A stretch of DNA of 37,459 nucleotides from Desulfobacterales bacterium (GCA_020056645.1 JAGVHJ010000422.1:1-37459); one strand, 5' to 3'; shown: positions 270 through 25,223, numbered from the stretch's first letter. A program made the numbers and translations. Notes: generated from the letters alone by a model not told the origin.

Positions 270-3200
270 ATGCGAACATCTCCTTCACTTGAAGTCATTA
301 TGAACCTTGCGGCGTTTGAGACCGTTTCCGCCAATTTCGCAGACATTGAACCGGAACATATCCTGATGGGGGTTCTGAAGTTTTCCGAATTCGGGGACAT
401 CCCTGCAAATGCGTTGATAGGGGGCAGGACGGTGCAGGAAACATTTCAATCTGAAGTCCGGGACCTTCGCCGGACGTTGAATGACTATGGGATTGATTCC
501 ACCCAATTGAGACGCAAGTCAAGGGCGGTCATGGGAGACGGCGGATCGCCTTACAGAAACGGGGTGATCCACCGGTCGATGGAAGCGAAACGGATTTTTT
601 CATCAGCAAGCCAGATATGTATCGAGGAACGCGCGGGTGAGTTAAATTCAATCCACCTGCTCAAGGCTGTTATCGCCAACCCAACGGATCGCCTTGTTTC
701 TCTTGACCCGGTTCTGTTCAAAAATAAGGGGCGCACCGTTACCAGGCAGTACCCACCCCGCGACATGGATTCCCAAACATCGGATGAAAGGCCACTTGTC
801 CGGACGCCGGAAACTCTTATGAACCTGAGTTTGGCTATGAAAAAACTTCGGGAAAGACTCTCCTCTGCCATATACGGTCAGGATCATGCCATTGATGCCT
901 TTGTCGAAGGGATATTCAATTCTCAGATCCTTTCCGGCGCGGACAAGGATCGCAGAAAGCCCAAGGGGCTTTTTGTTCTGGCCGGGCCGCCGGGCGTGGG
1001 CAAGACTTATCTTGCAGAAACTTCCGCAGCAGCCCTGGAGCGCCCCTTTAAGCGTTTTGACATGAGCGCCTTTTCTGGCCACGAAGAGTCCTATTCCCTG
1101 ATCGGCATCCACAAAAGTTACAAGGAGGCCCACCCAGGGTTGCTCACGGGGTTTGTCGCGAACAATCCAGATGCGATTCTCTTGTTTGACGAAATTGAAA
1201 AGGCTCACCTGAATACCATCCACCTTTTCCTCCAGGTAATGGACATCGGCAGGCTTGAAGACAAGTACACGGAAAAAGAGGTGGACTTTAAAGAGACCAT
1301 CGTTATCTTCACAACCAATGCGGGAAAGGTCCTTTACGATGATCCGGACAATTCGGGGCTGGCGAAAATCCCCATGGTGTGGCATCGCAAGACCATCCTG
1401 AACGCCCTGGAAACCGAGATCGACCAGAGGACCGGAAAACCCTTTTTTCCGCAGGCCATCTGTTCCAGGATGGGGACCGGGTATCCGATCATGTTCAATC
1501 CGTTGAGCGCCCATGACCTTGAGGCCATTGTCCGTGCGGAGCTTGAAAAAACCGGGGGGATGATGGCTTCGGGATTGTCAAAGAAAACGGAATTCAGGCC
1601 CTTGATCCCCTTATGCATTCTGCTGCGCGAGGGTGCGTGGTCGGATGCGCGCACCATCTGCTCACAGGCCGCGACATTCTGCAAAACAGAAATTTTCAAG
1701 CTGGCGGGTTTATACCGGCCTGCCAGACTTGACGCTGTGTTCAGCAAGGCGGAAAAGATTATTTTTGATGTTGCCCCGGCAGACCGTCTGCCCGATGATG
1801 TCAGGCACATCCTGAAATCCGAAAAAAAACCATCGATCCTTTTAATTACCGAGGACTATCTGCACGAGATCTGGAAAGAGCGGATTCCCGATATGGAGTG
1901 GCATTATGCGGACAATGAATCAGATGCACTCAGTATTATCGGGACAAACCCCATTGATATGGTGTTGCTGGATCTGTGGATCGGTCATTCGTTCAGAACC
2001 CCCTCCCCTCCTTCCCTGGGAAAGACCGTCCTGCAGTTCGATTATCTGCCTGAGGCCGCATCGGACATTGCCGCCGGTCAGGAGATTCTGTTTAAAATAC
2101 GGGAACGATTTCCGGTCCAGCCCTGTTACCTGCTCTCGTTTGCCAAACAACAGGGCATCCCTGTTCTTGACGCCGAGCTTCTGGGCGCGTGCAATCGGTC
2201 AAAGGGCGCACGGGGGGTGATATCCACCCATTTCCTCTCCACCGACACCTCGTCCTGGGAGGAGGCCTGCAATGATCTGTCTATTGAACTCAAACAGACT
2301 GCGCAAAGGCTGTTTTATGAAAAAAAAGCGTCCGAGCTTGGGGCGGAACGTAAGACCCTTAGCTTTGAGACAGTGCCTTTGATTGAGGATGACGGGAAAA
2401 CCATTGTGTTTCAGCTGCGAAACCTCCGCTTTGTCCGCGCCATGGCCGCCGGGGATGTTTCCGAAGTTCTTCACGACGTGGAGCGTCCGAACATCCGTTT
2501 TTTGGATGTTTATGGCGCATCTGCGGCAAAGGAGGAACTGCGCTATATTGTCCAGTGGCTCAAAGATCCTGAATATTACAACAGTCTTGGGTTGCGTCCG
2601 CCTAAAGGCATTCTGCTCCACGGAGAGCCCGGCACGGGGAAGACCATGCTGGCCCGTGCTCTGGCGGGTGAATGCAAAGCATCGTTTCTGGTTGAATCCG
2701 CCACCAGTTTCGTCACGATCTGGCAGGGCAGCGGCCCGCAGAATATCCGGGACCTGTTTGCGCGGGCGCGGCGATATGCGCCTTCCATCCTGTTTATTGA
2801 TGAAATCGACGCCGTCGGGAAAAAAAGAAAAGGCGGCGGCGGGGCTGACACGGCTACGGAGCAGACCTTGAATGCGCTTCTGGTGGAAATGGATGGGTTT
2901 AAAAATTCCAATCAAAGGCCGGTTATTCTGGTCGCCGCAACCAATCTGGCCGAAACCCTGGATGATGCGCTCAGGCGAAGATTCGACAGGGAGGTGGAGG
3001 TGGACAAACCGGACAAGGCGGCACGGATGGCCTATTTGACCAAACGATTGACAGGCTCGCCCCATAAACAGGTTTCTTCAATGGTTATTGAACGAATGGC
3101 CGGTCAGTCCGTGAACCTAACCATTGCCGACCTTGAGCGGATTGTGGAACTGGCAGGACGAATGGCGACAAAGGCAGGCAACATAATAACAGACGCTATA

Positions 3201-3803
3201 GTTGAGGAGGCCTTTGAACGAACGCGCATGGGAGAAGCTCGACCGGAAACCGATCCGGAGACGCTGCTCCGGATTGCCCGCCATGAGGCCGGTCATTGCC
3301 TGATCGGATGGCTCAGGGGAGAAAAGCCGGTTCAGATTACCATTGTGGGCAGGGCAAAGGCGGGCGGTTTTGTGGAGCGGAGTGTTGAAGAAAATCAGAT
3401 GATTTTTACCCGGCCCCAAATAGAAGGTTTAATCCGGCAGACAATGGGCGGAAGGGCCTCAGAGATTGTCTTTTATGGCGCAGAACACGGCCTTTCATCC
3501 GGGGCGTCACAGGATATTCGCCAGGCAAGCCGTTACGCGGAAAAGATGATTACCGAATACGGTATGGACGAATCCATAGGGCCGATTCATATTGGTTCCG
3601 GCCAAATGGCTGACAGACCGCTTTTGTTGAAGGTTACCCAGTCCATCCGGAAAATCGTACATGCGCAACTCATCCAAGCCATTGAAGATCTCAAGGGAAA
3701 CTTGGATCTACTGAACCATCTGATCGATAAATTGATGGAAAAAAATCGCCTGACAACCAGTGAATTGGAGGAAATTCTGGGAACGAAACAGGGTCGTCAA
3801 TGA
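270..3803 (+). CDS. Multidomain AAA+ protease: Clp_N-like repeats + ClpA/B D2-type AAA + receiver-like domain + FtsH-type AAA + M41 zinc peptidase; no membrane anchor seen
   Basis: Clp_N-like: IEPEHILMGVLKF and LNSIHLLKAVIANP. ClpB-D2-like: IYGQDHAIDAFVEG, Walker A FVLAGPPGVGKTYLAE, FKRFDMSAFSGHEES, Walker B ILLFDEIEKAH, FLQVMDIGRLEDK, VIFTTNAG. REC-like: SILLITED...IDMVLLDLW...CYLLSFAKQ. FtsH-like: LLHGEPGTGKTMLARALAGE, ILFIDEIDAVG, ATNLAETLDDALRRRFDREVEV. M41: HEAGHCLIGW, MGGRASEIVFYG, SSGASQDIRQASRYAEKMITEYGM. Confidence 0.85.
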   Translation: MRTSPSLEVIMNLAAFETVSANFADIEPEHILMGVLKFSEFGDIPANALIGGRTVQETFQSEVRDLRRTLNDYGIDSTQLRRKSRAVMGDGGSPYRNGVIHRSMEAKRIFSSASQICIEERAGELNSIHLLKAVIANPTDRLVSLDPVLFKNKGRTVTRQYPPRDMDSQTSDERPLVRTPETLMNLSLAMKKLRERLSSAIYGQDHAIDAFVEGIFNSQILSGADKDRRKPKGLFVLAGPPGVGKTYLAETSAAALERPFKRFDMSAFSGHEESYSLIGIHKSYKEAHPGLLTGFVANNPDAILLFDEIEKAHLNTIHLFLQVMDIGRLEDKYTEKEVDFKETIVIFTTNAGKVLYDDPDNSGLAKIPMVWHRKTILNALETEIDQRTGKPFFPQAICSRMGTGYPIMFNPLSAHDLEAIVRAELEKTGGMMASGLSKKTEFRPLIPLCILLREGAWSDARTICSQAATFCKTEIFKLAGLYRPARLDAVFSKAEKIIFDVAPADRLPDDVRHILKSEKKPSILLITEDYLHEIWKERIPDMEWHYADNESDALSIIGTNPIDMVLLDLWIGHSFRTPSPPSLGKTVLQFDYLPEAASDIAAGQEILFKIRERFPVQPCYLLSFAKQQGIPVLDAELLGACNRSKGARGVISTHFLSTDTSSWEEACNDLSIELKQTAQRLFYEKKASELGAERKTLSFETVPLIEDDGKTIVFQLRNLRFVRAMAAGDVSEVLHDVERPNIRFLDVYGASAAKEELRYIVQWLKDPEYYNSLGLRPPKGILLHGEPGTGKTMLARALAGECKASFLVESATSFVTIWQGSGPQNIRDLFARARRYAPSILFIDEIDAVGKKRKGGGGADTATEQTLNALLVEMDGFKNSNQRPVILVAATNLAETLDDALRRRFDREVEVDKPDKAARMAYLTKRLTGSPHKQVSSMVIERMAGQSVNLTIADLERIVELAGRMATKAGNIITDAIVEEAFERTRMGEARPETDPETLLRIARHEAGHCLIGWLRGEKPVQITIVGRAKAGGFVERSVEENQMIFTRPQIEGLIRQTMGGRASEIVFYGAEHGLSSGASQDIRQASRYAEKMITEYGMDESIGPIHIGSGQMADRPLLLKVTQSIRKIVHAQLIQAIEDLKGNLDLLNHLIDKLMEKNRLTTSELEEILGTKQGRQ

Positions 3804-3921
3804 TTCACTGTATATAGGTTTATTATGATATAGCATCTGGGGTTGGTTTAAGTTGCCAAAGCGGCAAACAAGAAGATAAACCATGAGATACACGCCCATG
3901 AAAATCCGAACAGGAGATAAT

Positions 3922-5544
3922 ATGGAAAACATATCTGGCGAATATTACACTATTGTGGCGAAATGCGATCCTGAGAAAAAAGAGCTTCCAGATGAAAAGA
4001 GGCTCCAGGGTCTTTACAGGATCGGAGAACAACTTTTTACGATGATTGAGACCGATGAACTCATGGAGAACATTATCAGGCTGATCGCTGAATGTCTGCC
4101 CATGGAGCGCTGTATGATCGGCCGGTGCTTTGTTGATTCAAATGAAATAACGCCCATTAAACACAATCTGGAAAACCTGCCGGATCAATTCGAAGATTGG
4201 CCCATCAGCTGTTCTGTTATCAGAGAGGTCTTAAAAACCGGAAAAGCCATACTGGGCTGTAATACACAAAATGACCCCAAATTCATTAATGGTAGTTTCA
4301 TTATGAAAAAAATTCTTTCTTTCATCTGTGCGCCGCTTGGGACGAGGAACAGTGCGGGTGAAAGGTCATATGGTTTTATCTATGTGGACATTAGTTTCAA
4401 AAAAAATATCGAGTTTAACGAAAATGACCTTAAATTCCTTACAGCCCTAAGTCCTTATATCGAATTGGCCATGAAGAACGCCGAAAAATTGTCGGTTGAA
4501 AGAAATAAAAGGGAATCGGCCGAAAAAAATTACTTTGAAATAAAAGATGAGCTGATCAAAAACAACATCGTGGGAAGCTCGAAAAAACTCACCGATGCAT
4601 TTGGGCGGCTTAGGCGGGCCTCTGATTCCGATGTTTCAATTCTTCTTTTGGGAGAGAGAGGCACGGGCAAAGAGCTGTTTGCAAAGGCTTGCCATCAGCT
4701 CTGCGAAAAAAGCCGGAGGGGCGGATCTTTTGTGATAGAGAACGTTGCGGCCATACCTGAAAACATGATAGAAAGTTTACTTTTCGGATATGAGAAAGGC
4801 TCTTTTACCGGCGCTAACGAGGCCCATACCGGGGATTTCGAGCTTGCACACGGTGGCACCCTTTTTCTGGATGAAATCGGCGATATGCCCCATAACTTGC
4901 AGGCCAAACTTCTAAGAGTTCTTCAAGACAAATCTTTTCGAAGGCTCGGTGGGAAGGTGGATAAACAATCGGACTTCAGACTGATCTGCGCGACCAACAA
5001 GGACCTGAATCACATGGTTATGAAAAATAGATTCAAGCCGGATTTGCTGGATCGGATAAGTGATATCATTATCCATATTCCCCCTTTGCGGGAAAGAACG
5101 GAAGATATTCCGGAGCTGGTGGTGCACTTTACAAAAAAACTTGCTATGAAAAAGTGTTTCTCGGCAGAAGCCATGGCCTGTCTCAAAAGCCTTCCCTGGG
5201 CGGGCAACATCCGGCAATTGTATCAGGTGGTAAAAAGGATCGATGTTCTGTGTGATGAAGATGACATCCATGTAAAGGATATTTTGCCACATATAAAGGA
5301 CGTATCGCTGCACACTGACAGACCGAACGCCGATAATCCCCCGAAGCCCAAAGAGGATGCCACTGGGGATGCCGGACACAACGAAACCGGGTTGCCCCTT
5401 GCCGAAGTCGAAAAAAAACATATCATAAAAATCCTCAATGATACAAAAGGGCAAAAAAACAGCATTGAAATTGCCGCAACGATTCTCGGCGTTTCACGGG
5501 CGACGCTTTATAACAAGATAAAAAAATACGATCTTGAATACTAA
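3922..5544 (+). CDS. Sigma-54-dependent transcriptional activator (bEBP) with N-terminal GAF-like sensor, AAA+ core and C-terminal Fis-type HTH
   Basis: LLLGERGTGKELFAKACH (Walker A), ESLLFGYEKGSFTGA (GAFTGA-loop variant), GTLFLDEIGDM (Walker B), KLLRVLQDKSFRRLGG, RLICATNKDL, HTH AATILGVSRATLYNKIKKYDL. Start chosen at ATG 3922, preceded by AGGAG; an in-frame ATG at 3883 (the ORF-track start) is the alternative. Confidence 0.9.
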   Translation: MENISGEYYTIVAKCDPEKKELPDEKRLQGLYRIGEQLFTMIETDELMENIIRLIAECLPMERCMIGRCFVDSNEITPIKHNLENLPDQFEDWPISCSVIREVLKTGKAILGCNTQNDPKFINGSFIMKKILSFICAPLGTRNSAGERSYGFIYVDISFKKNIEFNENDLKFLTALSPYIELAMKNAEKLSVERNKRESAEKNYFEIKDELIKNNIVGSSKKLTDAFGRLRRASDSDVSILLLGERGTGKELFAKACHQLCEKSRRGGSFVIENVAAIPENMIESLLFGYEKGSFTGANEAHTGDFELAHGGTLFLDEIGDMPHNLQAKLLRVLQDKSFRRLGGKVDKQSDFRLICATNKDLNHMVMKNRFKPDLLDRISDIIIHIPPLRERTEDIPELVVHFTKKLAMKKCFSAEAMACLKSLPWAGNIRQLYQVVKRIDVLCDEDDIHVKDILPHIKDVSLHTDRPNADNPPKPKEDATGDAGHNETGLPLAEVEKKHIIKILNDTKGQKNSIEIAATILGVSRATLYNKIKKYDLEY

Positions 5545-6176: not shown

Positions 6177-6192
6177 TGGCAACGCTGTTGCA
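6177..6192 (+). promoter_or_regulatory. Sigma-54 (-24/-12) promoter of the left-arm operon
   Basis: TGGCAAcgctgTTGCA matches TGGCAC-N5-TTGCW with exact GG-N10-GC spacing, about 135 nt upstream of ATG 6326. A homologous promoter plus leader is present in the right arm. Confidence 0.7.
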
Positions 6193-6325
6193 AAAGGGCA
6201 ACAACACATTGTGGATCACGAAGAGTTGGTAGGAAGCCTAAAAGTAGCGGGGTACCAGCAAGTCCGGTTTCTATTTTAGCTTTACCTGTAAACGCACCAT
6301 TAACAATCATTTAGAAGGAGGAATC

Positions 6326-6967
6326 ATGTCAAGAGGAATGAGATTGGGTAGGAATATCAGAATGAAACATATCCGTATGTTAATTGGCTTTCTGTGTGCC
6401 GTAACGTTGTCTGGATGTACATCCGTTATACGTCCACACGTTACAGAAGCCGAGTTTCTCACCGCTGAACCAAAAATCGCAGGCCATGCCGAACTCTATG
6501 TGTCGGAGGCATTTCGGACGCACACGGAAACAAAGACTGACCCGCTCGATTTCAAAAAATGGCAATTCGATTTAGGCCCGCTGGCGGTTGACACGTTCAA
6601 GTACTCGTTGGGAAGCCGTTTTGAGAAAGTTCACGTCAAGCTCGGCGAGCCTTCGTTTCCGCTGTCAGCCACCAACACCGAAGATCTCGTTGTGGCGATC
6701 GAGCCGGAATTCGCTGGTTTCAAGTCACATTGTCCGATCTTGTTCAAGTTTGAAACTTACGTTGTTCAGGTCTCGTTCAAGGTAAAAGCCTTTGATCAGA
6801 CCGGTAAAATACTGGTGGATAAAGTTTACCATGGCGTAGGAAAAAAACGCGGCGCCATTGGCCAGGCATCCTCTGGTCTCGATGCAAACCCTGTCGCAGC
6901 CCAATTGGCCTTAAAGGATGCTATAAATCAGGCCGTCACCGACATTCTGGTTGCTGTAAAAAAATAA
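6326..6967 (+). CDS. Lipoprotein of unknown function (213 aa)
   Basis: Signal peptide with lipobox LIGFLCAVTLSGC-TS. Strong RBS GAAGGAGG. Roughly four-fifths identical by eye to the product of 36084-36725(-). Confidence 0.75.
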   Translation: MSRGMRLGRNIRMKHIRMLIGFLCAVTLSGCTSVIRPHVTEAEFLTAEPKIAGHAELYVSEAFRTHTETKTDPLDFKKWQFDLGPLAVDTFKYSLGSRFEKVHVKLGEPSFPLSATNTEDLVVAIEPEFAGFKSHCPILFKFETYVVQVSFKVKAFDQTGKILVDKVYHGVGKKRGAIGQASSGLDANPVAAQLALKDAINQAVTDILVAVKK

Positions 6968-6979
6968 AAATCTGAAAAA

Positions 6980-7001
6980 GGCGGGGGCCGGACTACCCGC
7001 C
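6980..7001 (+). other. Conserved intercistronic stem-loop after the lipoprotein gene
   Basis: GGCGGGggccggactaCCCGCC, preceded by an A-run. The same GGCGGG/CCCGCC stem occupies the equivalent position in the right arm (36052-36073). Confidence 0.35.
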
Positions 7002-7057
7002 AAACCCTGGTATACCCAACATGAAATAATAAAAATTAAACAAAAAAGGAAAATATT

Positions 7058-7600
7058 ATGAATACAAAATCTTATCAATACTATTACTGTTTTCTCGCGA
7101 TTGTACTTGCACTATCATTGACCCGTCCCGCGTTGGCGCAAAGTAAAGGCCAATTGGGGCTGGGGGCCGGCATTGCCCATGGGATGCTTGGACTGAATGG
7201 GGAAATTTTATGCTGGGATCATTTAGGCCTGACCTTGGGTGCAGGATCTCTCGATGACTTTACGTGTTGGGCCGCCGGTGTCAGATATTATCTGAACAAA
7301 AGCGAAAGACGATGCCGACTGAGAGTCGGCTGTCTCTATGGGGTGGTTAATTATATTGAGGATATGGATATGAAAGAAACCATCGAAGGCCTGTTTCCTT
7401 TTGTTGGAGCGGATCTCAGATTGAATAAGCACATAGGGTTCAATGTTGATTTCGGCTATCGTATTCCCTCGAAAAATACGACCTCCTTACACGGTTCGGA
7501 AGGTTGGCAAAATAGTTATGAATACGTCTATTATGAAGAGGCCGAATTTAAAAATGAAAAAAGCGCCGCCATGAGCCTGGGACTGTCATACCATTTTTAG
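7058..7600 (+). CDS. Small outer-membrane beta-barrel protein (180 aa)
   Basis: Signal peptide ...LSLTRPALA-QSK. Alternating hydrophobic strands. C-terminal beta-signal ending LGLSYHF. Paralog of 34776-35315(-). Confidence 0.65.
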   Translation: MNTKSYQYYYCFLAIVLALSLTRPALAQSKGQLGLGAGIAHGMLGLNGEILCWDHLGLTLGAGSLDDFTCWAAGVRYYLNKSERRCRLRVGCLYGVVNYIEDMDMKETIEGLFPFVGADLRLNKHIGFNVDFGYRIPSKNTTSLHGSEGWQNSYEYVYYEEAEFKNEKSAAMSLGLSYHF

Positions 7601-7606
7601 CGAACA

Positions 7607-7648
7607 CCGCCGCTGTGCGTTGCATGTTTTATTCAAAAGCAGCGGCGG
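7607..7648 (+). other. Intercistronic stem-loop between the OM-barrel and coiled-coil genes
   Basis: CCGCCGCTG...(24 nt)...CAGCGGCGG, a 9-bp stem. The right-arm counterpart is CCGCTGCTG...CAGCAGCGG, where a C:G pair becomes T:A (compensatory change). Confidence 0.45.
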
Positions 7649-7668
7649 AACAATCATTGGAGGAAAAA

Positions 7669-9084
7669 ATGAGAATCGCAAACCAATTAAACAATGAGTT
7701 CCTGGAAATTGAAAATAATATATTTAATGAGCAAAACAAAAACGACATTTCATCCCCGAATGTTCAAGTGATCATGGCGCTCCAGAAGGAGAACAAAACT
7801 TTTATCGAAATTCTTGTGAGTGTTCTTGAAAAGGAATTTGAGGCGCTCGTTTTTTCAATGAAAAAGCCAATATCATTAATAAATAGCGAAGAAAATTCGG
7901 AGAGAGAATTGGATGATTACGAACGGATCAGCGTGAACCTTCGCCATTTTAAACCGGAAGCGGAGATTTTATTCGATGCCTTTGAATCCTGCGGAAAGGT
8001 CGCCACACAGGCTGGTTATACGGAAAAAACATTGGGTACGCTGATTTCTCAAATTGTAAACGCAGAACTGCATTTGTACGGCATCCCCAACCCTGCCATA
8101 TCCTGCTTCGAAGAACAGGAGCTGGCAATCACCAAAATGCTTCAGTCTTGCACCCAGGAAGAAAGAGACCAGTTTTGGACATGCCGTAATTCCTGCATCC
8201 ATCTCTATCGAGAGAAAGAGGCGCTTGAATATGAACTTTCTGAAATCGTTTTAGAAGTAAGCATTGCGGACACACAGCGGTTGAAGAAATTCGGGGATCT
8301 GTTAATCCAAAAAAAGGATCTCAGTTATAAGCTTGATGAATTATCCCTCAAGATTGATTTGAAAATCGAGAACCCTGATTTATCCTGGGAAGCACTTGAA
8401 ATTAAGGCAATTCAAATTTTAAGTATTCAAAATAAAAAAGAAGATGTAAAAAACAACCAACGCCGGTATAACGAATCGTTAAAGAATGGGCTCAGCCTGG
8501 CTGCGACCCAGGAGTCTGATGCAGAAATTGAAACCAAAAGAAGGATAGCCGTCCATAAACTAACCCTGAATATCAAGTCTTTAATCCACAACGATCGTAT
8601 CATTTTTCATCCCAATTACCACAAGCTCAGTGACAACGACAAAAAATTTCTTGAGGATTTGATCCGGGTACTGCCATCCGGAAAAGGAAAAAACCTTGAT
8701 TCGGCCCAACTGTTCCATGGGTATGACCTGCATTCGCCCACAGATTTGCAATTGATGGTTTACCGGGCGCAAGCGATACTAGACCATGCGGGGATCGAAA
8801 ATATAAAAAAAGACACGCTGATTCCAGGCGAGAGTATGAAGAAAAAGATAGAATTTCTCGATCTTGAAATTCTCCGGTTAAGGAAAATGATTGTATTTCT
8901 GAAAGCCCAGTTCAGCGCCCACAACGAGTATATAAGACGAGCAGAGAGCGCCTTGATGAACCCGGAGACTGAGAGAAAATCCCTCACGAACCAGATCCGC
9001 GTTTATCAGGAAAATATTATCGCGTTTGAAAAAACTTTACAGGAATTGTTTGAACCAGGGGCGGACAGCAAGGACGATCATTAA
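7669..9084 (+). CDS. Coiled-coil-rich protein, family member 1 of 3 (unknown function)
   Basis: ATG 7669 is preceded by GGAGG (7659-7663); the ORF-track start at 7615 lies inside the upstream hairpin. The sequence is E/K/L-rich and heptad-like. Paralogs are at 33187-34575(-) and 25335-26663(+). All three share an invariant IH-x-D-x4-HP motif. Confidence 0.7.
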   Translation: MRIANQLNNEFLEIENNIFNEQNKNDISSPNVQVIMALQKENKTFIEILVSVLEKEFEALVFSMKKPISLINSEENSERELDDYERISVNLRHFKPEAEILFDAFESCGKVATQAGYTEKTLGTLISQIVNAELHLYGIPNPAISCFEEQELAITKMLQSCTQEERDQFWTCRNSCIHLYREKEALEYELSEIVLEVSIADTQRLKKFGDLLIQKKDLSYKLDELSLKIDLKIENPDLSWEALEIKAIQILSIQNKKEDVKNNQRRYNESLKNGLSLAATQESDAEIETKRRIAVHKLTLNIKSLIHNDRIIFHPNYHKLSDNDKKFLEDLIRVLPSGKGKNLDSAQLFHGYDLHSPTDLQLMVYRAQAILDHAGIENIKKDTLIPGESMKKKIEFLDLEILRLRKMIVFLKAQFSAHNEYIRRAESALMNPETERKSLTNQIRVYQENIIAFEKTLQELFEPGADSKDDH

Positions 9085-9100
9085 AGAAGGAGGATGGCAA

Positions 9101-10456
9101 GTGCTCACAGACAAGAAAACATATCTTCCCTGCACCATTTTCTCCCGTGCAAAAAAGGGGGATGGCCTGGCGGCAGCGGAAACCGATGAATGGAAACATT
9201 TCATCAAGCAGGGTCTCCCGGTTTCCCCTATCGACCGCATCGGGGTATACGGCAATACCCTGGCGGTATCGACCCATGGAAAAAAGCATTTTACAAAGGT
9301 CTTCAGCCTTGAATCCGGAAACTGCCTCTTAAAATACAAAAACGCCACGATTACAAAACCCTATATTTTCCTTTCCAGAAGTCATTTTTTACTCTCCACC
9401 GACATGGATTGGCGTCAGGTTGAAATCCGCGATATCGGCGATGGGAAATATCTCTACACCCTGGAATTTCCATATGGGTTGCACTGCTTTTGTTTCAGCC
9501 ATGATGGAAGGCGGATGCTCACCGTCTCCGCCATCAATCTGTTCCGGGAGTGGGACCTTAAATCAGGTCAATGCCTTAATGAATACCGCCTTAAGAATTA
9601 TCCCACACCTGTAACGCACATTGACATTTTACCGGATGATATGCGCTTTCTTACCTTAAGCACAGATTCAGACACCGTGATTTGTCATGATTTGAAAACA
9701 GGGGGGGGGCTGGGGGCTTTTCGCGGTCAGACAAAAATGATCTACTATTTCAAGTTGTTTCCCGATGGTCAGTCTTTTGCGATCCGGGGCATTGAAAACA
9801 AAATCGAGATCATCCATATCAAAACCGGCGAATCTGAGAAACGATTTGACTGCAAGGATCACCATTCCAACACAATGTATGTATCGAAGGACGCCAGGAG
9901 CCTCATCAGTTTTATGAAAAACGGCGAAAATATCCTTGTCTGGGATACCAACAAGGAAACCTTTAAACCATTTTCTTCAAGGCATGTCACCACCCCCTAC
10001 CTATGCCGTTTTATAAATGAGAAGACACTATTCATAAGCGATGAACACGCCAAGCACAAATTGGTGTTCATCGACATCGCCACGGATACCCTTCTTGGAA
10101 CATTGCATAACTTTGAACAGCACTATTTATGGGAAACCACAGCGGATCAAACATGCGCCGAGGTCTTATTCTGGAGCGATAATATTGACGAAACCATAGA
10201 TGTCGTGGCGGAATCCCCACTCCCACCCCCTTCATCCGCACTGCCTGATAGAGATTATTATAAACGGAAATCTTATATTTTCGACCACCTTGATCAACAG
10301 GCTGTAATGGCAAGAATTCAAAACAAAAAGACAGAGTGCCAGTTCCACAGAAAACACTATCCGGAAATCAAGAATGACGCCACTCAGCGGCTTGAAAGCG
10401 ACTTATGTTCGAAACTTCTTTCAATGCCGGGTGGCGGCACAAAGGAGGCATTATGA
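9101..10456 (+). CDS. WD40-like beta-propeller protein, family member 1 of 3
   Basis: GTG 9101 is preceded by AAGGAGG (9087-9093), and this start aligns with the paralog N-terminus (LTDKKTYLPCTIF vs MSNEKYLPSNLIF). It contains repeated blades of about 40 aa, for example LFREWDLKSGQC, VICHDLKTGG, ILVWDTNKE. Confidence 0.75.
   Translation: MLTDKKTYLPCTIFSRAKKGDGLAAAETDEWKHFIKQGLPVSPIDRIGVYGNTLAVSTHGKKHFTKVFSLESGNCLLKYKNATITKPYIFLSRSHFLLSTDMDWRQVEIRDIGDGKYLYTLEFPYGLHCFCFSHDGRRMLTVSAINLFREWDLKSGQCLNEYRLKNYPTPVTHIDILPDDMRFLTLSTDSDTVICHDLKTGGGLGAFRGQTKMIYYFKLFPDGQSFAIRGIENKIEIIHIKTGESEKRFDCKDHHSNTMYVSKDARSLISFMKNGENILVWDTNKETFKPFSSRHVTTPYLCRFINEKTLFISDEHAKHKLVFIDIATDTLLGTLHNFEQHYLWETTADQTCAEVLFWSDNIDETIDVVAESPLPPPSSALPDRDYYKRKSYIFDHLDQQAVMARIQNKKTECQFHRKHYPEIKNDATQRLESDLCSKLLSMPGGGTKEAL
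9701..9709 (+). repeat. G9 homopolymer inside the propeller CDS (encodes GGG)
   Basis: aca ggg ggg ggg ctg. The tract is absent from both paralogous genes. Confidence 0.9.
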
Positions 10457-11967
10457 TGGATCGACAATGTTGCAGTTTCAGTGATGAATGTCTCGATATT
10501 GGGGAAAAGGAGATTTCATATCTTGCAGACAAGAGCCGCCATTTTAACCCATATGAAATCAATGTGAAGGAGAAATTTGGTGTCATTACCGATCGTTTTA
10601 TCGGGGAAGAAAACGGGCCGCTTGTTATCCACATCAAGGAGGGGCATTTCAACAAGGATTCCTTTGTATGCGGCGTGAAGCTGATTGAAGAAATTTTATC
10701 CGACTATGGAATCAATCTCATTCTGAAAGAGAGCAATTCAAAGGACGACATCCGGTACAACTATGAAAGGTATTGTTACACCAGGCAAAAAAAGGTAGAA
10801 ATGATGCAAAAGGATTTTGGAGAACACTCCTATTGGGCGGACAAGTACCTGTATACGATGTCCAGCTACCCCCTGGACTGCCGTGGTGTGGATAATCACC
10901 ACCTTCGCGATTCGTTGCTTCTTTGTTATGGCGTCTTAGACCCAATGCGACCCGCAGCCCGCCAATATCTGAACCGCTTAAAACAGGAGATCGAAGCAAT
11001 CAAGCCCTATTTTTACCACAAAGAGCTACAAAAATTCGAGCATATGAAAAGGAATTGCCATAATAAAACAATTTCCATTAACACCTGGGCCATGTTCCTG
11101 AAAAGGGCGACAAGGGGCTGTTCAAAAGATCTGGAAACACGCTATCCCAATTTTTGGCGTTTGCTCAAAGTCATTGATATGGAACAGGAGATATTTTTTC
11201 ATAGTATCGATGATGAACGCGATAGAGCGCTGTCGTATTTGAACAAGACCCGTGACAAAGAAAAAAGGCAAGAGATACACCTTGTGTATTCGGATTTTTC
11301 AAAAGGAAATATCCCGGCGGCAGAATTTTTCGCTTATCTGATGGCCCAATATGACAACCCGGAAACATCGGAAAGGAATCTGTTCTTATACACCCAATAC
11401 CTTCAGGAATTTCGATTGATAAATACAGTGGATCTGTTTGATGAAACAGCGGCCCTTGAGGAGGAGGTTTATCAACACTTATATGAGAATGACGACCAAA
11501 AAACCCTGAAAGAGATGGCGGAACGATGCGATCTTCTTCTGGATCTACTGGATTTTTCCCTTCAACCAAGAGACTATAATTTGTATATCAGCCACAGGGA
11601 AAAATTCGATATCGAGGCATGGCAACCCTTTCTCTCCGATAAATTAATAAAAATGGGTGGAAAGGAACTGATTCACCCCCCACCCGGTTACCAAAAAGAT
11701 GTTTATGACAAGTGTGCGGAATTCTATGCCATCTGTATTCGCCGGGCATACCATTTCGTCGATCGGACCCTGGCGCATATCGAACATTCCCGAAGTAACG
11801 CCGGGATTCTCGTAACAGGTGGATTTCACAGCTTTTCTATAACTCGGTTATTGAAGCAAAAAAATATTTCTTACGTTGTGATCAGCCCTCAGATCAAAAG
11901 TTATTCAGACGAAAACGTCAAAGACAAGGCTTTTCGCCGGGAGGCGAAAGAATTGGTTGAAGATTGA
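10453..11967 (+). CDS. ChaN/Tiki/erythromycin-esterase-superfamily-like protein, family member 1 of 3 (tentative)
   Basis: ATG 10453 overlaps the upstream stop (ATGA) and is preceded by AAGGAGG. Motifs: LVIHIKEGHFN (E-x-H), NLILKES, HIEHSRSNAGILVTGGFHS (G-x-x-H). The family assignment comes from motif memory only. Confidence 0.5.
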   Translation: MMDRQCCSFSDECLDIGEKEISYLADKSRHFNPYEINVKEKFGVITDRFIGEENGPLVIHIKEGHFNKDSFVCGVKLIEEILSDYGINLILKESNSKDDIRYNYERYCYTRQKKVEMMQKDFGEHSYWADKYLYTMSSYPLDCRGVDNHHLRDSLLLCYGVLDPMRPAARQYLNRLKQEIEAIKPYFYHKELQKFEHMKRNCHNKTISINTWAMFLKRATRGCSKDLETRYPNFWRLLKVIDMEQEIFFHSIDDERDRALSYLNKTRDKEKRQEIHLVYSDFSKGNIPAAEFFAYLMAQYDNPETSERNLFLYTQYLQEFRLINTVDLFDETAALEEEVYQHLYENDDQKTLKEMAERCDLLLDLLDFSLQPRDYNLYISHREKFDIEAWQPFLSDKLIKMGGKELIHPPPGYQKDVYDKCAEFYAICIRRAYHFVDRTLAHIEHSRSNAGILVTGGFHSFSITRLLKQKNISYVVISPQIKSYSDENVKDKAFRREAKELVED

Positions 11968-11974
11968 ACTGTTT

Positions 11975-11988
11975 CCCCCCCCCCCCCC
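11975..11988 (+). repeat. C14 homopolymeric tract (intergenic)
   Basis: Fourteen consecutive C residues, 8 nt after the stop at 11965-11967 and 87 nt before ATG 12075. Confidence 0.95.
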
Positions 11989-11997
11989 AATTTTTTC

Positions 11998-12025
11998 TTG
12001 ATCATTATTATCATCCATCTATATA
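11998..12025 (+). promoter_or_regulatory. Possible sigma-70-type promoter for the HEAT/FGE gene pair
   Basis: TTGATC - 16 nt - TATATA, immediately downstream of the C14 tract. This is a pattern match only. Confidence 0.25.
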
Positions 12026-12074
12026 CAAGCTTCAATATCCACTTAAAAAAGCACCACGGAAAAGGAGGCAGAGA

Positions 12075-14000
12075 ATGAATCTTCAGGAGGCGAAGAGCGG
12101 TCTTTTCACCAAGACATTTCTTCTTGGTCGGTTCAAACAGAATGCGGCATTAAAATATTTATCTGAAAGCAATGAACCGGGAGCCATTGATATTCTGGTG
12201 GAGGCCCTTGATCAGGGGCACCGGAGTAGGAAGATCAAGGATATCCTGTTGTCCGTTGAGGACCAGGCCAGGCTGGATCATCTCTGGGGCATCTGGTCAA
12301 AAAGCCGATCTGAGAAACTGGAAAACGTGTTGAAAAAGAAAAACGCGCCTGCCAGCGACGAAACCAATCGGGTACTGTCTCTTCTTAAAATCGGCAACAC
12401 GGCTGACATACCCACTGATAATGGTGGGATCCGTAAAGTACTCTCACTCATAAATGATCCTGACAAGAACATAAAAAAAGGTGTGATTGATTATGCCATG
12501 GGGCTGCCCCGGACCGATGAAGCATCGGATCACCTTTACAGGACATGGATAATGCTGAAATCACCCATGTTAGGGGCCGTTGTGCGGGATCAGAAACGAA
12601 CGTTGATTGATCCGTCATTAGAAACCATCGATATTCTATTGATAGCCCTTGAAAAAGGATACGAGAGCGAAGTAGTCAGTAACCTTCTTTTAAGTGTCAA
12701 AGATCCGGCCAAAACCGATCATCTCTGGGCAACCTGGTCAAAAAGCCGGTCTGAGAAACTGGAAAACGTGTTGAAAAAGAAAAACGCGCCTGCCAGCGAC
12801 GAAACCAATCGGGTACTGTCTCTTTTAAAAATCGGACGGACCGATGACGTGCCCCGGGACAGAGGCGGGATGCGAAAAGCCTTCCAACTGCTTGGTGATC
12901 GAGATAAAGAGGTTCAAAAAAGGGTGGTGGATTATGCCAGCCTCCTGCCCAGGACCGAAGACGCCGCAGACGAGATATACGGAGCCTGGCTTAAATTTGA
13001 ATCTGAGCCACTGGCTTCCGTGATCCGGAGTCAGGACCAAAAGCCCTCAAACCCCTCTCTGGAAGCCTTGTTTTTTCTTCTTGAAAACAAGGTAAAGGAG
13101 TATCTGACCCTTGAAAACGAGCGCGGAGAAAGGTTCCAGGAAGCCTTTGCCATGGCGCCCGAATCATTTCGGGAAAAGCTGAATAATGTGGTACTTAAAA
13201 GCGGCAGCAGACGGCTGACCGATGCCTATGAAAAAGCCATGGCGGCAAGAGGTGACTTAAGCAGTGATCTGGTTATCAATGCCAGAAAAACAGCGGGAGA
13301 TGACAACGGCCTTTTTGAAGCAGCCAAATACATGACCCTTACCGGGCTTCTCGATCTTTGCAAACGCTGGACCGACAATAAATGGCGACCCACGGAGCCC
13401 AGATATCGGGCGTTGGTGGAACGGGCCGTTACCGCATATACCCAGGTGGGCGACCTGAATATCGCCACAGACACTCCCGCACCCGAAGGGACCGTCGACC
13501 TGTTCGACGCCTTTCAAAACGACACCCTGAACGACAAACAGATTCTTGAAGGACTGGACGACCCCGACCCCTTTATCCGGATGCGCTCTGTTTACCTTGG
13601 CGTTCTTCGGAATCTTCTGCCTGCGGGACGACTTGAAAAAGCCGCCCAAAGCCAGGACTGGCCCGAACGTCTGGCCGCAAAATTATCACATCAGGTGACG
13701 ACAACAGAAAAAGACCCTGTGACATGGGTCAATGGCTGTACCGGAAGCGGAGGACTGTTAACCGCGCCGGTAAACTGCACGCCGGAGGAATACGATTATT
13801 TCGGACAGATCCTCCACAAAACCCCGTTAACCGCCAGTGGCTTTGCCGCAAAATACCGGGCACTGACGGAAATCCTTCACGCTTTTCAGTCTGTTCATGC
13901 AGCGGGCGGCATCGTTGCCGGGGACGATGACAGCGCCATGGAACCGGAGGCACTCCAGATGACCGAGGTCGAGGATGCTCCGGATGATATCGAATTTTAA
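12075..14000 (+). CDS. HEAT/PBS-lyase-like helical repeat protein with an internal 147-aa tandem duplication and an acidic C-terminal tail
   Basis: ATG 12075 is preceded by AAAGGAGG. Helical-repeat starts: AIDILVEALDQGH, TIDILLIALEKGY, LDDPDPFIRMRSVYLGV. C-terminus ...EVEDAPDDIEF. The ORF-track TTG at 11964 would read through the C14 tract, so it is considered unlikely. Confidence 0.65.
   Translation: MNLQEAKSGLFTKTFLLGRFKQNAALKYLSESNEPGAIDILVEALDQGHRSRKIKDILLSVEDQARLDHLWGIWSKSRSEKLENVLKKKNAPASDETNRVLSLLKIGNTADIPTDNGGIRKVLSLINDPDKNIKKGVIDYAMGLPRTDEASDHLYRTWIMLKSPMLGAVVRDQKRTLIDPSLETIDILLIALEKGYESEVVSNLLLSVKDPAKTDHLWATWSKSRSEKLENVLKKKNAPASDETNRVLSLLKIGRTDDVPRDRGGMRKAFQLLGDRDKEVQKRVVDYASLLPRTEDAADEIYGAWLKFESEPLASVIRSQDQKPSNPSLEALFFLLENKVKEYLTLENERGERFQEAFAMAPESFREKLNNVVLKSGSRRLTDAYEKAMAARGDLSSDLVINARKTAGDDNGLFEAAKYMTLTGLLDLCKRWTDNKWRPTEPRYRALVERAVTAYTQVGDLNIATDTPAPEGTVDLFDAFQNDTLNDKQILEGLDDPDPFIRMRSVYLGVLRNLLPAGRLEKAAQSQDWPERLAAKLSHQVTTTEKDPVTWVNGCTGSGGLLTAPVNCTPEEYDYFGQILHKTPLTASGFAAKYRALTEILHAFQSVHAAGGIVAGDDDSAMEPEALQMTEVEDAPDDIEF
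12183..13064 (+). repeat. In-frame tandem duplication, 2 x 441 nt, inside the HEAT-like gene
   Basis: Unit 1 is 12183-12623 and unit 2 is 12624-13064. The core 12293-12383 versus 12734-12824 differs at a single base, whereas the flanks are clearly diverged. Confidence 0.85.
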
Positions 14001-14036
14001 TGGTTGAGCCAGGAAGGCACCCACAGGAGACACATC

Positions 14037-14822
14037 ATGCCGATCATTCAGATAGAGACTCAGAATACCTGGCGGGCGATGTCGCCCTTGATCATAAACC
14101 AGAAAGACACCTCTCTTCTGGTGTGGATTCCACCCGGCGAGTTTGAGATGGGAGACGGGAAGGAAACTTCTTGCCCCAAGCACCGAGTCCATCTGGACGG
14201 GTATTACATGGGGGTGTACTGCGTAACGAACCGCCAGTATAAGGTTTTTGTGGATAAGACAGGTCATCGTCCACCGGACAATTCAAAGTGGGTGGCTCCG
14301 GAGTACGCAGATCATCCAGTGGTGTGCGTAAACTGGGAAGACGCTACAGCGTACTGTGCATGGGCAGGGTTGCAGTTGCCCACGGAAGCGCAGTGGGAGA
14401 AGTCGGCCCGGGGGCCTTCGGGATTTATTTATCCCTGGGGAAACGAGTGGGACCAAGCCCGGTGCCGGAACGACAAAAACAAGGGCGACCAGACCACCTG
14501 CCGGGTTTATGATTATCCTGAAGGGGTATCGGGGTGCGGGACTTACAACCAGAGCGGGAGTGTATGGGAGTGGTGCCAGGACTGGTATGAGAGTGATTAT
14601 TACAAAAAGAGTCCGCGAGAGAATCCTGCTGGCCCATCAACGGGCTCGGACCGCGTGATTCGCGGCGGCAGCTGGAACATCGACTTTGCCGGCCGCTATC
14701 GGGCCGCCCGCCGGATCAACGACGACCCGCCGTACCGGAGCGACAACGGCGGGTTCCGTGCTTGCCTGCCCCCAGGTCAGCGGCAGTCCGGTCAGGTCAG
14801 GCAGCGAAAGGCGCGGGGGTGA
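14037..14822 (+). CDS. FGE-sulfatase (SUMF1-like) fold protein, copy 1; lacks the catalytic Cys pair
   Basis: ATG 14037 is preceded by AGGAG. Motifs: WIPPGEFEMGDG, HRVHLDGYYMGVYCVTNRQYKVFV, HPVVCVNWEDATAYCAWAG, LPTEAQWEKSARG, GSVWEWCQDWY, RVIRGGSWN, GGFRACLP. There is no cysteine in the GGSWNIDFAGRYR segment, where true FGE carries C-x4-C. Confidence 0.85.
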   Translation: MPIIQIETQNTWRAMSPLIINQKDTSLLVWIPPGEFEMGDGKETSCPKHRVHLDGYYMGVYCVTNRQYKVFVDKTGHRPPDNSKWVAPEYADHPVVCVNWEDATAYCAWAGLQLPTEAQWEKSARGPSGFIYPWGNEWDQARCRNDKNKGDQTTCRVYDYPEGVSGCGTYNQSGSVWEWCQDWYESDYYKKSPRENPAGPSTGSDRVIRGGSWNIDFAGRYRAARRINDDPPYRSDNGGFRACLPPGQRQSGQVRQRKARG

Positions 14823-14885
14823 CCCGGTCAGGGGAGGCGGGAGCCGGACCTGACCGTGGGCACACCGGTGCCTTTCGCGGGGCCA
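14088..14885 (+). repeat. Dispersed direct repeat, copy A (FGE-fold gene body plus about 60 nt of 3' flank)
   Basis: Long runs are identical to 19659-20483, for example 65 nt ttgatcataaaccagaaagacacctctcttctggtgtggattccacccggcgagtttgagatggg. The similarity continues past the stop codon through ccggacctgaccgtgggcacaccg-tgcctttcgcggggcca. Confidence 0.85.
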
Positions 14886-14891
14886 GCGTAG

Positions 14892-14937
14892 GGGCAGGTT
14901 CCAAACCTGCCCGTTGAGGGCGGGTTTGGAACCTGCC
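14892..14937 (+). repeat. Pair of GC-rich palindromes (REP-like or terminator-like)
   Basis: GGGCAGGTTccaAACCTGCCC (14892-14912) and GGGCGGGTTTGGAACCTGCC (14918-14937). The second is nearly the reverse complement of the first. No U-tract follows. Confidence 0.5.
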
Positions 14938-15029
14938 ACTCCAAGAGGGCCTGACATAAGTCAACAGCATCGGACCTGACCGCAGGCATAAAAGAAACCA
15001 ACAGATAAAAAAACAAGTGGAGGTAACCC

Positions 15030-15590
15030 ATGACCACAAAACAGAACGGATTTTTTTCCAGGCTGTGTCAGGCAGCCGCAGCCCTTGGAGGCTCTCCGGA
15101 ACCGGAAAGCGCGGCGGGCACAACCCCCCCCGATGAGCCCTCTCGCCTCAAATCCCATATCCGAACCCTTGAGTTGGACATCGAAGAACGGGAGACCCGG
15201 ATCAAGACCATGCAGAAGGAGTTCGACCATTTCAGCCGTCAGGCAGAACGTGACAGGGAGGGCGCAGGGTCCGCAGAAATTCAGGCCCTTGCCAAGAGAC
15301 TTGCGCCGATCCTTTCCCAGGTTCCCACCATGCGGGCCATGCACGCCGAGGGCGCGCCCGTCCGGCAGGAAGATCTGCTCCGGCTGTTTGAAAAAGTGGA
15401 ACGGATTTTACAGGAAACAGGCCTTACGCCCATCGGCCAGGTGGGAGAGAGCGTCCGTTTTGACAGCCGTCTGCACCAGCGGATGAGCGGCGGAGACCTA
15501 AGCGACGGAGGGACCGTGCAGGTCCGGTTTGTGGGATACCACATAAACGATGTGATTCTGACCAAAGCCTTGGTCAGCAGAGAGGATTAA
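15030..15590 (+). CDS. GrpE-like nucleotide-exchange factor (186 aa)
   Basis: N-terminal coiled coil (IRTLELDIEERETRIKTMQKEF). C-terminal GrpE-type beta domain: GLTPIGQVGESVRFDSRLHQRM ... VQVRFVGYHINDVILTKALVS. RBS GGAGG. Confidence 0.7.
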   Translation: MTTKQNGFFSRLCQAAAALGGSPEPESAAGTTPPDEPSRLKSHIRTLELDIEERETRIKTMQKEFDHFSRQAERDREGAGSAEIQALAKRLAPILSQVPTMRAMHAEGAPVRQEDLLRLFEKVERILQETGLTPIGQVGESVRFDSRLHQRMSGGDLSDGGTVQVRFVGYHINDVILTKALVSRED

Positions 15591-15593
15591 CCC

Positions 15594-17210: not shown

Positions 17211-17212
17211 AC

Positions 17213-19546: not shown

Positions 19547-19577
19547 GAGACCTATGTTGAATCAAGGAATCTGAATA

Positions 19578-20441: not shown

Positions 20442-20483
20442 CCGGACCTGACCGTGGGCACACCGATGCCTTTCGCGGGGCCA
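19659..20483 (+). repeat. Dispersed direct repeat, copy B (FGE-fold gene body plus 3' flank)
   Basis: Counterpart of 14088-14885, offset by 5571 nt at the left edge. It contains a 27-nt insertion relative to copy A. Confidence 0.85.
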
Positions 20484-20512
20484 AAAAAAATAAATAACAA
20501 GGAGAATCAACC

Positions 20513-20908
20513 ATGTCACACTTTACAACCATCAAAACCGTGATCAGAAATCAGGTGGTGCTGGAAGACACCTTGCGGTCTCTCCACTATAATTTCCAGT
20601 CCGGAGAATCGGTGCCCATAAGGGGGTATCAGGGGAACAGAACCACCGGCCAGGTGGTGATAAACACCGGGTCTGATTATGACATCGGCTTTCAGCGGCA
20701 GACGGATCAGACATTTGCCGTCTGCGCCGACTGGTGGGGTGTCCAAAAAAGCACCGCCATCCGCGAGGACGAATTCTTACGGGAAGTGAACCAGTCCTAT
20801 ACCCACCAGAACGTAAAACGGGAAGTGTTGGCGCTAGGGCATCTCATCGAATCCGAGAAAGTCCTTGAAAACGGTGAGATCGAAATCGTGGTCTGTGAAA
20901 GAATCTGA
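20513..20908 (+). CDS. DUF1257 (Ycf35-like) family protein (tentative)
   Basis: The N-terminus MSHFTTIKTVIRNQVVLEDTLRSL matches the characteristic MSHF-x-x-IKT start I associate with DUF1257/Ycf35 proteins. RBS AAGGAG. Confidence 0.55.
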   Translation: MSHFTTIKTVIRNQVVLEDTLRSLHYNFQSGESVPIRGYQGNRTTGQVVINTGSDYDIGFQRQTDQTFAVCADWWGVQKSTAIREDEFLREVNQSYTHQNVKREVLALGHLIESEKVLENGEIEIVVCERI

Positions 20909-20925
20909 CAAAAAGGAGTGAGGTC

Positions 20926-22748: not shown

Positions 22749-22759
22749 GGAATAAAACC

Positions 22760-23398: not shown

Positions 23399-23409
23399 AA
23401 GGAGAAACC

Positions 23410-24978: not shown

Positions 24979-25223
24979 TGACAGATACGGGGATCTGGCG
25001 AATTCGAAAAATCGGAATTGAAGATGCGCGTGAAACAAACCTGAGGATAGCATTCGTCTAAATTCTGGACTAAATATCTGGTTGCGTCTTAATTTTTAAT
25101 CGTTTTGCCCCGGTGGCATCCGGTATCCCCCCAGTTAATACATTCCGTCCGCATTTTAAATTTTATCCATAACTATTTATAATAACATATAAATTAATCC
25201 ATATATCAATATTTTTTCCTGCC

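Follow-up and report, generated by a model that had tools for sequence, protein, structure and literature searches.

We analyzed a stretch of 37,459 nucleotides from a Desulfobacterales bacterium (GCA_020056645.1 JAGVHJ010000422.1:1-37459), the whole of which is called the window below, starting from a sequence-only reading of positions 6177 to 11967 as a five-gene operon under sigma-54 control. The genes in this region encode a lipoprotein, a predicted small outer-membrane beta-barrel, and three further proteins, which are referred to here as the trio: a helical protein, a WD40-like beta-propeller protein, and a soluble putative hydrolase resembling the Tiki, Ere, and ChaN proteins. All five genes were located as had been described, including the lipobox LSGC of the lipoprotein and the terminal SYHF of the barrel. 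Across the window, the genes are laid out in a block on the + strand (270–29351), followed by a block on the − strand (29997–36839), and the features are summarized in Table 1.

The trio recurs three times in the window, at 7669–11967 (+), 25335–29351 (+), and 34575–30252 (−), and we call these copies, together with the genes co-oriented upstream of them, cassettes 1, 2, and 3. Cassette 2 consists of the trio only and has neither lipoprotein nor barrel, and the trio of cassette 3 is preceded by a lipoprotein, an extra secreted protein, and a barrel. In cassette 1, the start codon of the helical protein at 7669 has a GGAGG sequence on its 5′ side, and an identical 471-aa product is recorded at NCBI. 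The close packing that had been noted between the last three genes is real: the helical and WD40 genes are separated by 16 nt (9085–9100), and the TGA of the WD40 gene and the ATG of the hydrolase gene overlap as ATGA (10453–10456). A Kyte–Doolittle scan detected no N-terminal or internal hydrophobic segment in the trio proteins (maximum 19-residue mean ≤ 1.30), which agrees with the earlier statement that they lack signal peptides; the lipoprotein, the barrel, and the extra secreted protein each contain such a segment.

The pattern TGGCA-N6-TTGC, a form of the GG-N10-GC element, was observed four times in the window vs. 0.38 expected, and none of 100 shuffled sequences (0/100) reached four. 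Three of the four sites (6177 +, 25224 +, and 36889 −) lie 110–150 nt 5′ of the first gene of each cassette in the correct orientation, in line with the proposed sigma-54 control. The fourth site (29969–29955) falls inside the open reading frame (ORF) of an AbrB-type antitoxin and was rejected as a promoter, being regarded as a chance occurrence. A sigma-54-type element, TGGCATACCCGTTGCT, was also found 5′ of the helical-protein gene of a distant trio (L082, described below). Apart from CCTGGCAA, no upstream activator motif was common to the three cassette promoters. Just before cassette 1, an enhancer-binding protein was recognized by its Sigma54_activat (E 1.8e-59), GAF_2 (E 1.2e-7), and HTH_8 (E 4e-9) Pfam matches; judged only by its adjacency, it would be the cognate activator of the cassettes. 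Separately, a GC-rich hairpin, GGCGGGGGCCGGACTACCCGCC, with no T-run occurs between the lipoprotein and barrel genes (6975–7000), and may be a processing or attenuation site.

Table 1. Positions of the cassettes, their promoters, and the surrounding genes in the window.
Feature	Position	Strand	Remarks
Cassette 1, sigma-54-type −24/−12 promoter	6177–6192	+	TGGCAACGCTGTTGCA; ~135 nt 5′ of lipoprotein ATG
Cassette 1, lipoprotein (accessory, outer-membrane-type)	6326–6967	+	lipobox LSGC (...AVTLSGC)
Cassette 1, predicted small outer-membrane beta-barrel (accessory)	7058–7600	+	signal peptide ...RPALA/QSKG; C-terminus LSYHF; PF13505 sub-threshold
Cassette 1, trio gene 1, E/L/K-rich helical protein, 471 aa	7669–9084	+	C-terminal coiled-coil segment; motif LIHxDxIxxH
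Cassette 1, trio gene 2, WD40-like beta-propeller protein	9101 (GTG)–10456	+	conserved RGIEN motif; no signal peptide
Cassette 1, trio gene 3, soluble Tiki/Ere/ChaN-like putative hydrolase, 504 aa	10453–11967	+	IHIKEGHFN and VTGGFHS
Cassette 2, sigma-54-type promoter	25224–25238	+	TGGCAACATTTTTGC
Cassette 2, helical protein	25335–26663	+	about 25% identity to cassettes 1 and 3
Cassette 2, WD40 protein	26656–28011	+	overlaps preceding gene by 8 nt
Cassette 2, Tiki-like protein	28008–29351	+	IYIKDATAN, degenerate first-His motif; E93 and GGFH retained
Cassette 3, sigma-54-type promoter	36874–36889	−	TGGCAATAATGTTGCA
Cassette 3, lipoprotein	36084–36725	−	ATG 36725; lipobox LSGC
Cassette 3, extra secreted protein	35347–35991	−	homologue at same position in L001
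Cassette 3, predicted outer-membrane barrel	34776–35315	−	C-terminus LSYHF
Cassette 3, helical protein	33187–34575	−	
Cassette 3, WD40 protein	31769–33118	−	ATG 33118 set by alignment; ORF opens 33157
Cassette 3, Tiki-like protein	30252–31769	−	IHIQEAH and GGFH intact
1177-aa protein, AAA_2 and AAA modules, C-terminal M41 (FtsH-type) peptidase	270–3803	+	directly 5′ of sigma-54 activator
Candidate activator, GAF–sigma-54 AAA+–HTH_8 enhancer-binding protein	3883–5544	+	just 5′ of cassette 1
FGE-sulfatase paralogues (two)	14004–14822, 19578–20441		
GrpE-like and short Hsp70-like pair	15030–17210		
Ser/Thr-kinase–AAA fusion	ends 19546		
DUF1257	20513–20908		
AAA / radical-SAM (Fer4_12) / AAA genes	21129–24978		
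VapBC-type pair, AbrB/SpoVT-type antitoxin	~29997–29764	−	pair lies between cassettes 2 and 3
VapBC-type pair, PIN toxin	~29786–29364	−	PF01850 E 7.7e-15

Conservation of the trio and its accessory genes

The complete order of the trio was found in three other lineages. In two Logan assemblies (L001/L002), the lipoprotein, extra protein, barrel, helical, WD40, and hydrolase genes follow one another in the order of cassette 3. In L082 (JGI), a full trio lies between two kinase genes (phmmer E 2.5e-86 for the helical protein, 9.7e-91 for the WD40 protein, and 1e-101 for the hydrolase), and in L092 (JGI), a full trio lies between DUF2225 and unknown genes. The WD40–hydrolase pair was found on two short contigs (L083 and L086), where the end of the WD40 gene and the start of the hydrolase gene have 4 nt in common. 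Overall, this arrangement, in which the genes overlap or almost abut, was seen in at least four metagenomic lineages besides the window. The trio is a conserved three-gene unit, as its recurrence had been taken to suggest, and no fourth gene is conserved 3′ of it. Its distribution is rare and patchy; in a collection of 1.84 billion representatives, the trio-type hydrolase makes up about five 50% clusters. No model in Pfam, NCBIfam, or PADLOC names the system or assigns it to a characterized pathway, and a survey of conflict systems mentions no Tiki or erythromycin-esterase component (PMC7159879). The cassette is undescribed in the libraries searched and in that survey, as the sequence-only reading had supposed, and its components come from known superfamilies.

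When cassette 1, cassette 3, and L001 were compared, the lipoprotein was the best conserved of the set (76–83% identity), followed by the barrel (59–72%), the helical protein (49–64%), the hydrolase (53–61%), and the WD40 protein (46–59%). In a crude heptad scan, the only coiled-coil signal that was reproducible among the three helical paralogues covered their final ∼60 residues, so the description of this protein as a coiled coil holds for that segment and not for the rest, which carries conserved non-coiled-coil motifs such as LIHxDxIxxH. In an alignment of five sequences, the invariant positions outside the coiled coil include F94, P96, H135, D230-L231-K232, I306-H307-x-D309...H314, and A374-G375-I376. 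The helical protein had no relative in Pfam, NCBIfam, PADLOC, or the PDB (crescentin, E 0.47), and a metagenome scan with its alignment found nothing. A PspA-type reading was dropped, as no PspA Pfam match appeared. For the WD40 protein (9101–10456), 15 propeller or WD40 Pfam families were matched (best E 9.1e-13), all below the family-specific cut-offs; repeated WD40-type blades were detected by propeller profiles, and the homologues in L001 and L082 bear the same Pfam marks, which is consistent with the propeller that had been proposed.

The lipoprotein has a lipobox of the pattern [LVI][ASTVI][GAS]C, with ...FLCAVTLSGC and a hydrophobic h-region in all three copies, and had no match in Pfam, NCBIfam, or PADLOC. 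The barrel has a signal peptide in addition to its terminal ...SYHF, and its matches to PF13505 (OMP_b-brl; E 9.3e-4, and E 3.7e-3 for the paralogue) are below the Pfam cut-off. Both genes are absent from cassette 2, L082, and L092. Additionally, the lipoprotein family has 22 detectable relatives, and those at 50–58% identity are found in four unrelated settings that lack both the barrel and the trio. For this reason, the envelope link is not part of the unit. The claimed connection between envelope genes and trio is real in the lineage of the window (cassettes 1 and 3 and L001), and as a lineage-specific association it lies outside the conserved unit.

Three side observations concern these secreted proteins. 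Lipoprotein homologues that occur outside the trio context (L087 9750–10000 and L088 4520–4685) have a common leader, GGGG[CT]GGTG[AG]ATGGAGAAAGAC ... TTCGCG[TG]GTGAGACTTA, and this may represent either a regulatory RNA or a binding site; the upstream leader is absent from the lipoprotein copies of the window. The extra secreted protein (35347–35991 −) ends in a Gly-rich C-terminal tail with one Cys, GGDGGGGCFITNLLK. In L001, its homologue (1552–2232) is divided between two ORFs, perhaps because of a frameshift.

The hydrolase family and its predicted fold

Both motifs that had drawn attention to the third trio protein, IHIKEGHFN and VTGGFHS, are present, and the protein had no match in sequence searches of Pfam, NCBIfam, PADLOC, or the PDB. 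A word-indexed protein search returned only the protein itself, its paralogue, and one Logan protein; the same search with a profile of 37 sequences likewise returned three relatives, and missed the family that was found exhaustively. The exhaustive profile search detected 6758 representative clusters (50% identity) at E ≤ 0.001, of which 1380 were at E ≤ 1e-30. Among the matches listed, most cover residues ∼50–510 of proteins of 1–5.6 kaa, the longest having 5568 aa. A genome scan with the hydrolase gave 79 loci, and nearly all of the named ones were metagenome-assembled genomes of Candidatus Omnitrophota; many of these loci were ORFs of > 3800 aa that extended beyond the fetched flank, and there were several paralogues per genome. 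These results place the hydrolase in a very large family that is unannotated and otherwise membrane-anchored, and which is mostly found as the N-terminal module of giant multi-enzyme Omnitrophota proteins.

A strongly hydrophobic segment precedes the domain in 122 of 152 family proteins, and no such anchor was found in the trio-type proteins P0001–P0005 and P0007. In a neighbor-joining tree, the seven trio-type proteins formed one clade, the sisters of which were the anchored proteins P0006 and P0011 (∼600 aa), and the gene context of P0006 differs from that of the trio. The trio-type proteins were thereby shown to be a single clade that lost the anchor. Five of nine sampled giant proteins had downstream PIG-L deacetylase, PGM/PMM, hexapeptide transferase, PP2C, GH5, or UDPGP domains, and the other four had no recognizable downstream domain. 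Relatives of the helical and WD40 proteins were neither fused into the giant genes nor located beside them, so there is no Rosetta-stone link between the trio partners and the giants. Keyword searches of preprints on the Omnitrophota giant proteins found no mention of ChaN, Tiki, TraB, or erythromycin, and the N-terminal module therefore appears to be unreported in those preprints.

The fold was predicted with AF2. A model built from four sequences was unusable (pLDDT 50), and the model from 37 sequences reached a pLDDT of 90.5 and a pTM of 0.82. Its strands (57–63, 89–92, 142–145, 450–456, and 473–479) alternate with helices, and an alpha/beta core (residues ∼43–145 and 450–479) is interrupted by an all-helical insert of ∼300 residues (∼149–445). 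In this model, E63 and H65 (IHIKEGH), E93, and H459 (GGFH) sit directly after strands 57–63, 89–92, and 450–456, respectively. In the catalytic scheme of the TIKI superfamily, two His and two Glu residues are sited at strand ends (2His/2Glu; PMC6254334), and the pattern and strand positions of E63/H65/E93/H459 match this layout. Across the 37 sequences, which are mostly 21–35% identical to the window protein, five residues never vary (E93, R431, G456, G457, and H459), and conservation reaches at least 90% at H65, R106, and R114. E63, H65, E93, and H459 are accordingly placed as putative catalytic residues from the sequence pattern.

A Foldseek search of the PDB gave the erythromycin esterase EreC as the top match (6xcq, E 0.1, probability 0.66), and the other matches that were not coiled coils were Bcr135 (3b55 and 2rad), the open form of EreC (6xcs), and HopBA1 (5t09). 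Bcr135, HopBA1, and the Ere family have all been named as members of the TIKI superfamily (PMC6254334). Furthermore, PF04187 (ChaN, Tiki superfamily) was weakly matched by 6 of the 37 full-length sequences and by 8 of 22 core sequences from which the insert had been removed (best E 8.6e-4), and was the only Pfam family matched repeatedly by the cores; as a control, the NCBIfam matches on the core sequences were all singleton noise. The window hydrolase itself had no PF04187 match, and a BFVD fold search was uninformative. Based on the residue pattern, the fold matches, and the PF04187 matches, the hydrolase probably belongs to the TIKI/erythromycin-esterase/ChaN superfamily. The designation “ChaN-like” is moderately supported.

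Genomic surroundings and possible roles

The guanine–cytosine content is 0.38–0.47 in the cassettes vs. 0.52–0.60 in a central block (∼13000–25000), which looks like an inserted conflict-type island; IetA-like AAA ATPases are also part of its content. In the window, L001, and L082, the cassette has Ser/Thr kinases, AAA+ ATPases, and Hsp70-like genes on its flanks; the kinases lie on both sides of the trio in L082 and downstream in L001. Directly after cassette 1 is a 678-aa HEAT-like protein (11964–14000), the start of which overlaps or closely follows the cassette end. It has a near-perfect internal duplication, DHLW..WSKSRSEKLENVLKKKNAPASDETNRVLSLLKIG, which occurs twice about 150 residues apart.

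The explanation that we consider best as a whole, and which we hold to be about evenly balanced between right and wrong, is a cassette of three genes encoding a helical protein of 440–470 aa that ends in a coiled coil, a WD40 propeller, and a soluble Tiki/Ere/ChaN hydrolase with a helical lid of ∼300 residues. Because of the translational coupling and strict co-occurrence of the genes, we infer that the three proteins would form a stoichiometric cytoplasmic complex. The His–Glu site (E63/H65/E93/H459) would hydrolyze an ester or peptide bond, and the propeller and helical partner may serve to pick out the substrate, to retain it, or to gate the enzyme. The module would be turned on when the GAF activator senses a small-molecule signal. 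In the lineage of the window, two cassettes would have recruited the lipoprotein and the small barrel as accessory genes expressed along with the trio. The most likely biological setting is a role in conflict or as a stress effector, given the surrounding island, the triplication and faster divergence of the trio, and the kinases and ATPases near the trios of L001 and L082.

Several results weigh against parts of this explanation. With regard to the superfamily, Foldseek returned nothing from the PDB at E ≤ 0.001 (best E 0.1, with TM 0.20–0.25, and no TM above 0.25), the low TM values being due to the 300-residue insert; the PF04187 scores are below the gathering threshold (one score was 18.5 bits vs. 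a cut-off of 27.7); hhalign of the core profile against the TraB-family protein YbaP of Escherichia coli was negative (probability 0.15); and PDB profile searches with the full and core-only sequences were negative, with only spurious matches to myosin light chain and MotY. The resemblance first seen in the motifs is supported by the EreC, Bcr135, and HopBA1 folds, the PF04187 matches of eight of the 22 core sequences, and the 2His/2Glu pattern, none of which is statistically significant. The cassette 2 hydrolase has lost H60 and H65 (H60Y and H65T) and keeps E93 and GGFH; because the first His is lost, this copy may be inactive or may work differently. With regard to control, no sigma-54 element was found upstream in L001 or L092. 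Additionally, no terminator-like site was found 3′ of 11967, and the next + strand ORF opens at 11964 (TTG) or 12075 (ATG), so the transcription of cassette 1 may continue beyond five genes; the operon that had been proposed is correct in its genes and uncertain in its 3′ end. The lipoprotein and barrel accompany the trio only in the window and in one close relative. Finally, the flanks of L092 contain no kinase or ATPase, consisting of DUF4384, DUF2225, and EamA, and PADLOC-DB 2.0 gave zero families at E ≤ 0.1 for all five proteins, from which it follows that the defense setting is not general.

Three other explanations were compared with the hydrolase cassette. The one that survives best makes the trio the executioner or processing arm of the surrounding NTPase/kinase/chaperone island, in which the Tiki-like protein would act as a protease, cutting a protein of the host or of an invader that the propeller presents. 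We regard this as possible and somewhat doubtful. The contents of the island suit such an arm (Hsp70-like and GrpE-like proteins, the kinase–AAA fusion, IetA-like AAA ATPases, FGE-sulfatase domains, and VapBC), as do the kinases around the L082 trio and downstream in L001, the three copies of a cassette whose trio diverges faster than its envelope genes, and the rare, patchy distribution; TIKI-fold toxins such as RRSP are proteases (PMC6254334). However, none of the five proteins matches PADLOC, the conflict-systems survey (PMC7159879) has no Tiki or erythromycin-esterase component, the neighbors of L092 are ordinary, and no phage-related signal was found.

Remodeling of an envelope glycan or lipid is improbable. 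Here, the enzyme would be an esterase whose substrate is an acylated sugar, a polymer derived from a sugar nucleotide, or an intermediate linked to a lipid, and the lipoprotein and barrel would form the outer-membrane end of that pathway. The domain is membrane-anchored in the wider family, and in five of the nine sampled giants it shares a chain with PIG-L, PGM/PMM, hexapeptide transferase, GH5, or UDP-glucose pyrophosphorylase domains; moreover, the near fold Bcr135 was deposited as a “succinoglycan biosynthesis protein,” and two cassettes are predicted to be co-transcribed with envelope proteins. Nevertheless, the trio-type clade has lost the anchor and lacks a signal peptide, no carbohydrate gene lies beside any trio, and both envelope genes are missing from cassette 2, L082, and L092, with the lipoprotein family dispersed over four unrelated contexts.

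A non-catalytic role, in which the Tiki-like protein would be a ligand-binding or scaffold subunit comparable to the haem-binding ChaN or to PMT C1/C2, which lack catalytic residues, would account for the loss of H60 and H65 in cassette 2, for the haem-binding ChaN family being the only recurrent Pfam match, and for the precedent of PMT as a TIKI-fold protein without 2His/2Glu (PMC6254334), but it is very improbable, since E93, R431, and H459 are invariant and H65 nearly so across 37 divergent sequences, which argues for a conserved active site, and since the C-terminal His and second Glu that form the essential pair of RRSP (PMC6254334) are both kept in cassette 2.

The sequence-only reading on which the hydrolase cassette builds is supported: the three core genes are syntenic in other genomes, profile searches place them in no known pathway, and structural matches below significance accompany the E-x-H/G-x-x-H resemblance. 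In its fullest form, which we advance tentatively and consider unlikely to hold in every part, the trio would be a hydrolase system of three components that has not been described before, is inducible through sigma-54, and serves as an effector in stress or conflict; its catalytic subunit would found a new family of the Tiki superfamily, and the same module in anchored form would head thousands of Omnitrophota giants. If so, the chemistry of the trio would also explain the function of the N-terminus of the giants, for example self-processing or action on an envelope substrate. A Tiki/Ere-type enzyme that works with protein partners and under sigma-54 control would represent a new mode of deployment. 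The triplication and divergence within one 37-kb contig suggest specialization or an arms race.

Comparison with known systems

The cassette superficially resembles Tol-Pal, whose components likewise include a lipoprotein and a further protein of the outer membrane, a helical protein of some length, and a beta-propeller. We rejected this analogy, since neither the propeller nor the helical protein of the trio carries a signal peptide or a membrane segment, TolQ/R-like genes are missing, and the sequences are not similar.

The Ere family (EreC 6xcq/6xcs and Bcr135 3b55/2rad) provides the best fold matches. Both it and the modeled trio hydrolase have an alpha/beta core with an inserted helical lid, and His–Glu residues at the C-terminal ends of parallel strands. 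However, the identity is 10–14% (Foldseek E 0.1–0.5, TM 0.13–0.25), there is no PF05139 match, the insert of the window hydrolase is much larger (∼300 residues), and its first motif is x-[DE]-x-H with no leading Gly. Similarly, the C-terminal GxxH region aligns with ChaN/Cofac_haem_bdg (PF04187; residues 491–567 of P0006 vs. positions 139–213 of the profile), whereas ChaN is a periplasmic haem-binding lipoprotein and the trio protein has no signal peptide. The TIKI/TraB/PrgY proteases and RRSP have the same succession of an ExH motif after a strand, a Glu after the next strand, and a His after the C-terminal strand, but they are extracytoplasmic or toxin-borne, and none has been described with WD40 and helical partners. 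As a tangential lead, a membrane protease of the Tiki superfamily co-occurs with lipoproteins across archaeal genomes (PMC12462473).

The relationship with the Omnitrophota giants extends over the full length of the hydrolase, to which their N-terminal module is homologous at 19–26% identity (tblastn E to 6e-44; profile E to 1e-73). In contrast to the trio protein, the giants carry a hydrophobic anchor at the N-terminus and fused enzymes that span thousands of residues, and they have no helical or WD40 partner. The small, soluble relative in the window would therefore be a tractable handle on the function of their anchored N-terminal module.

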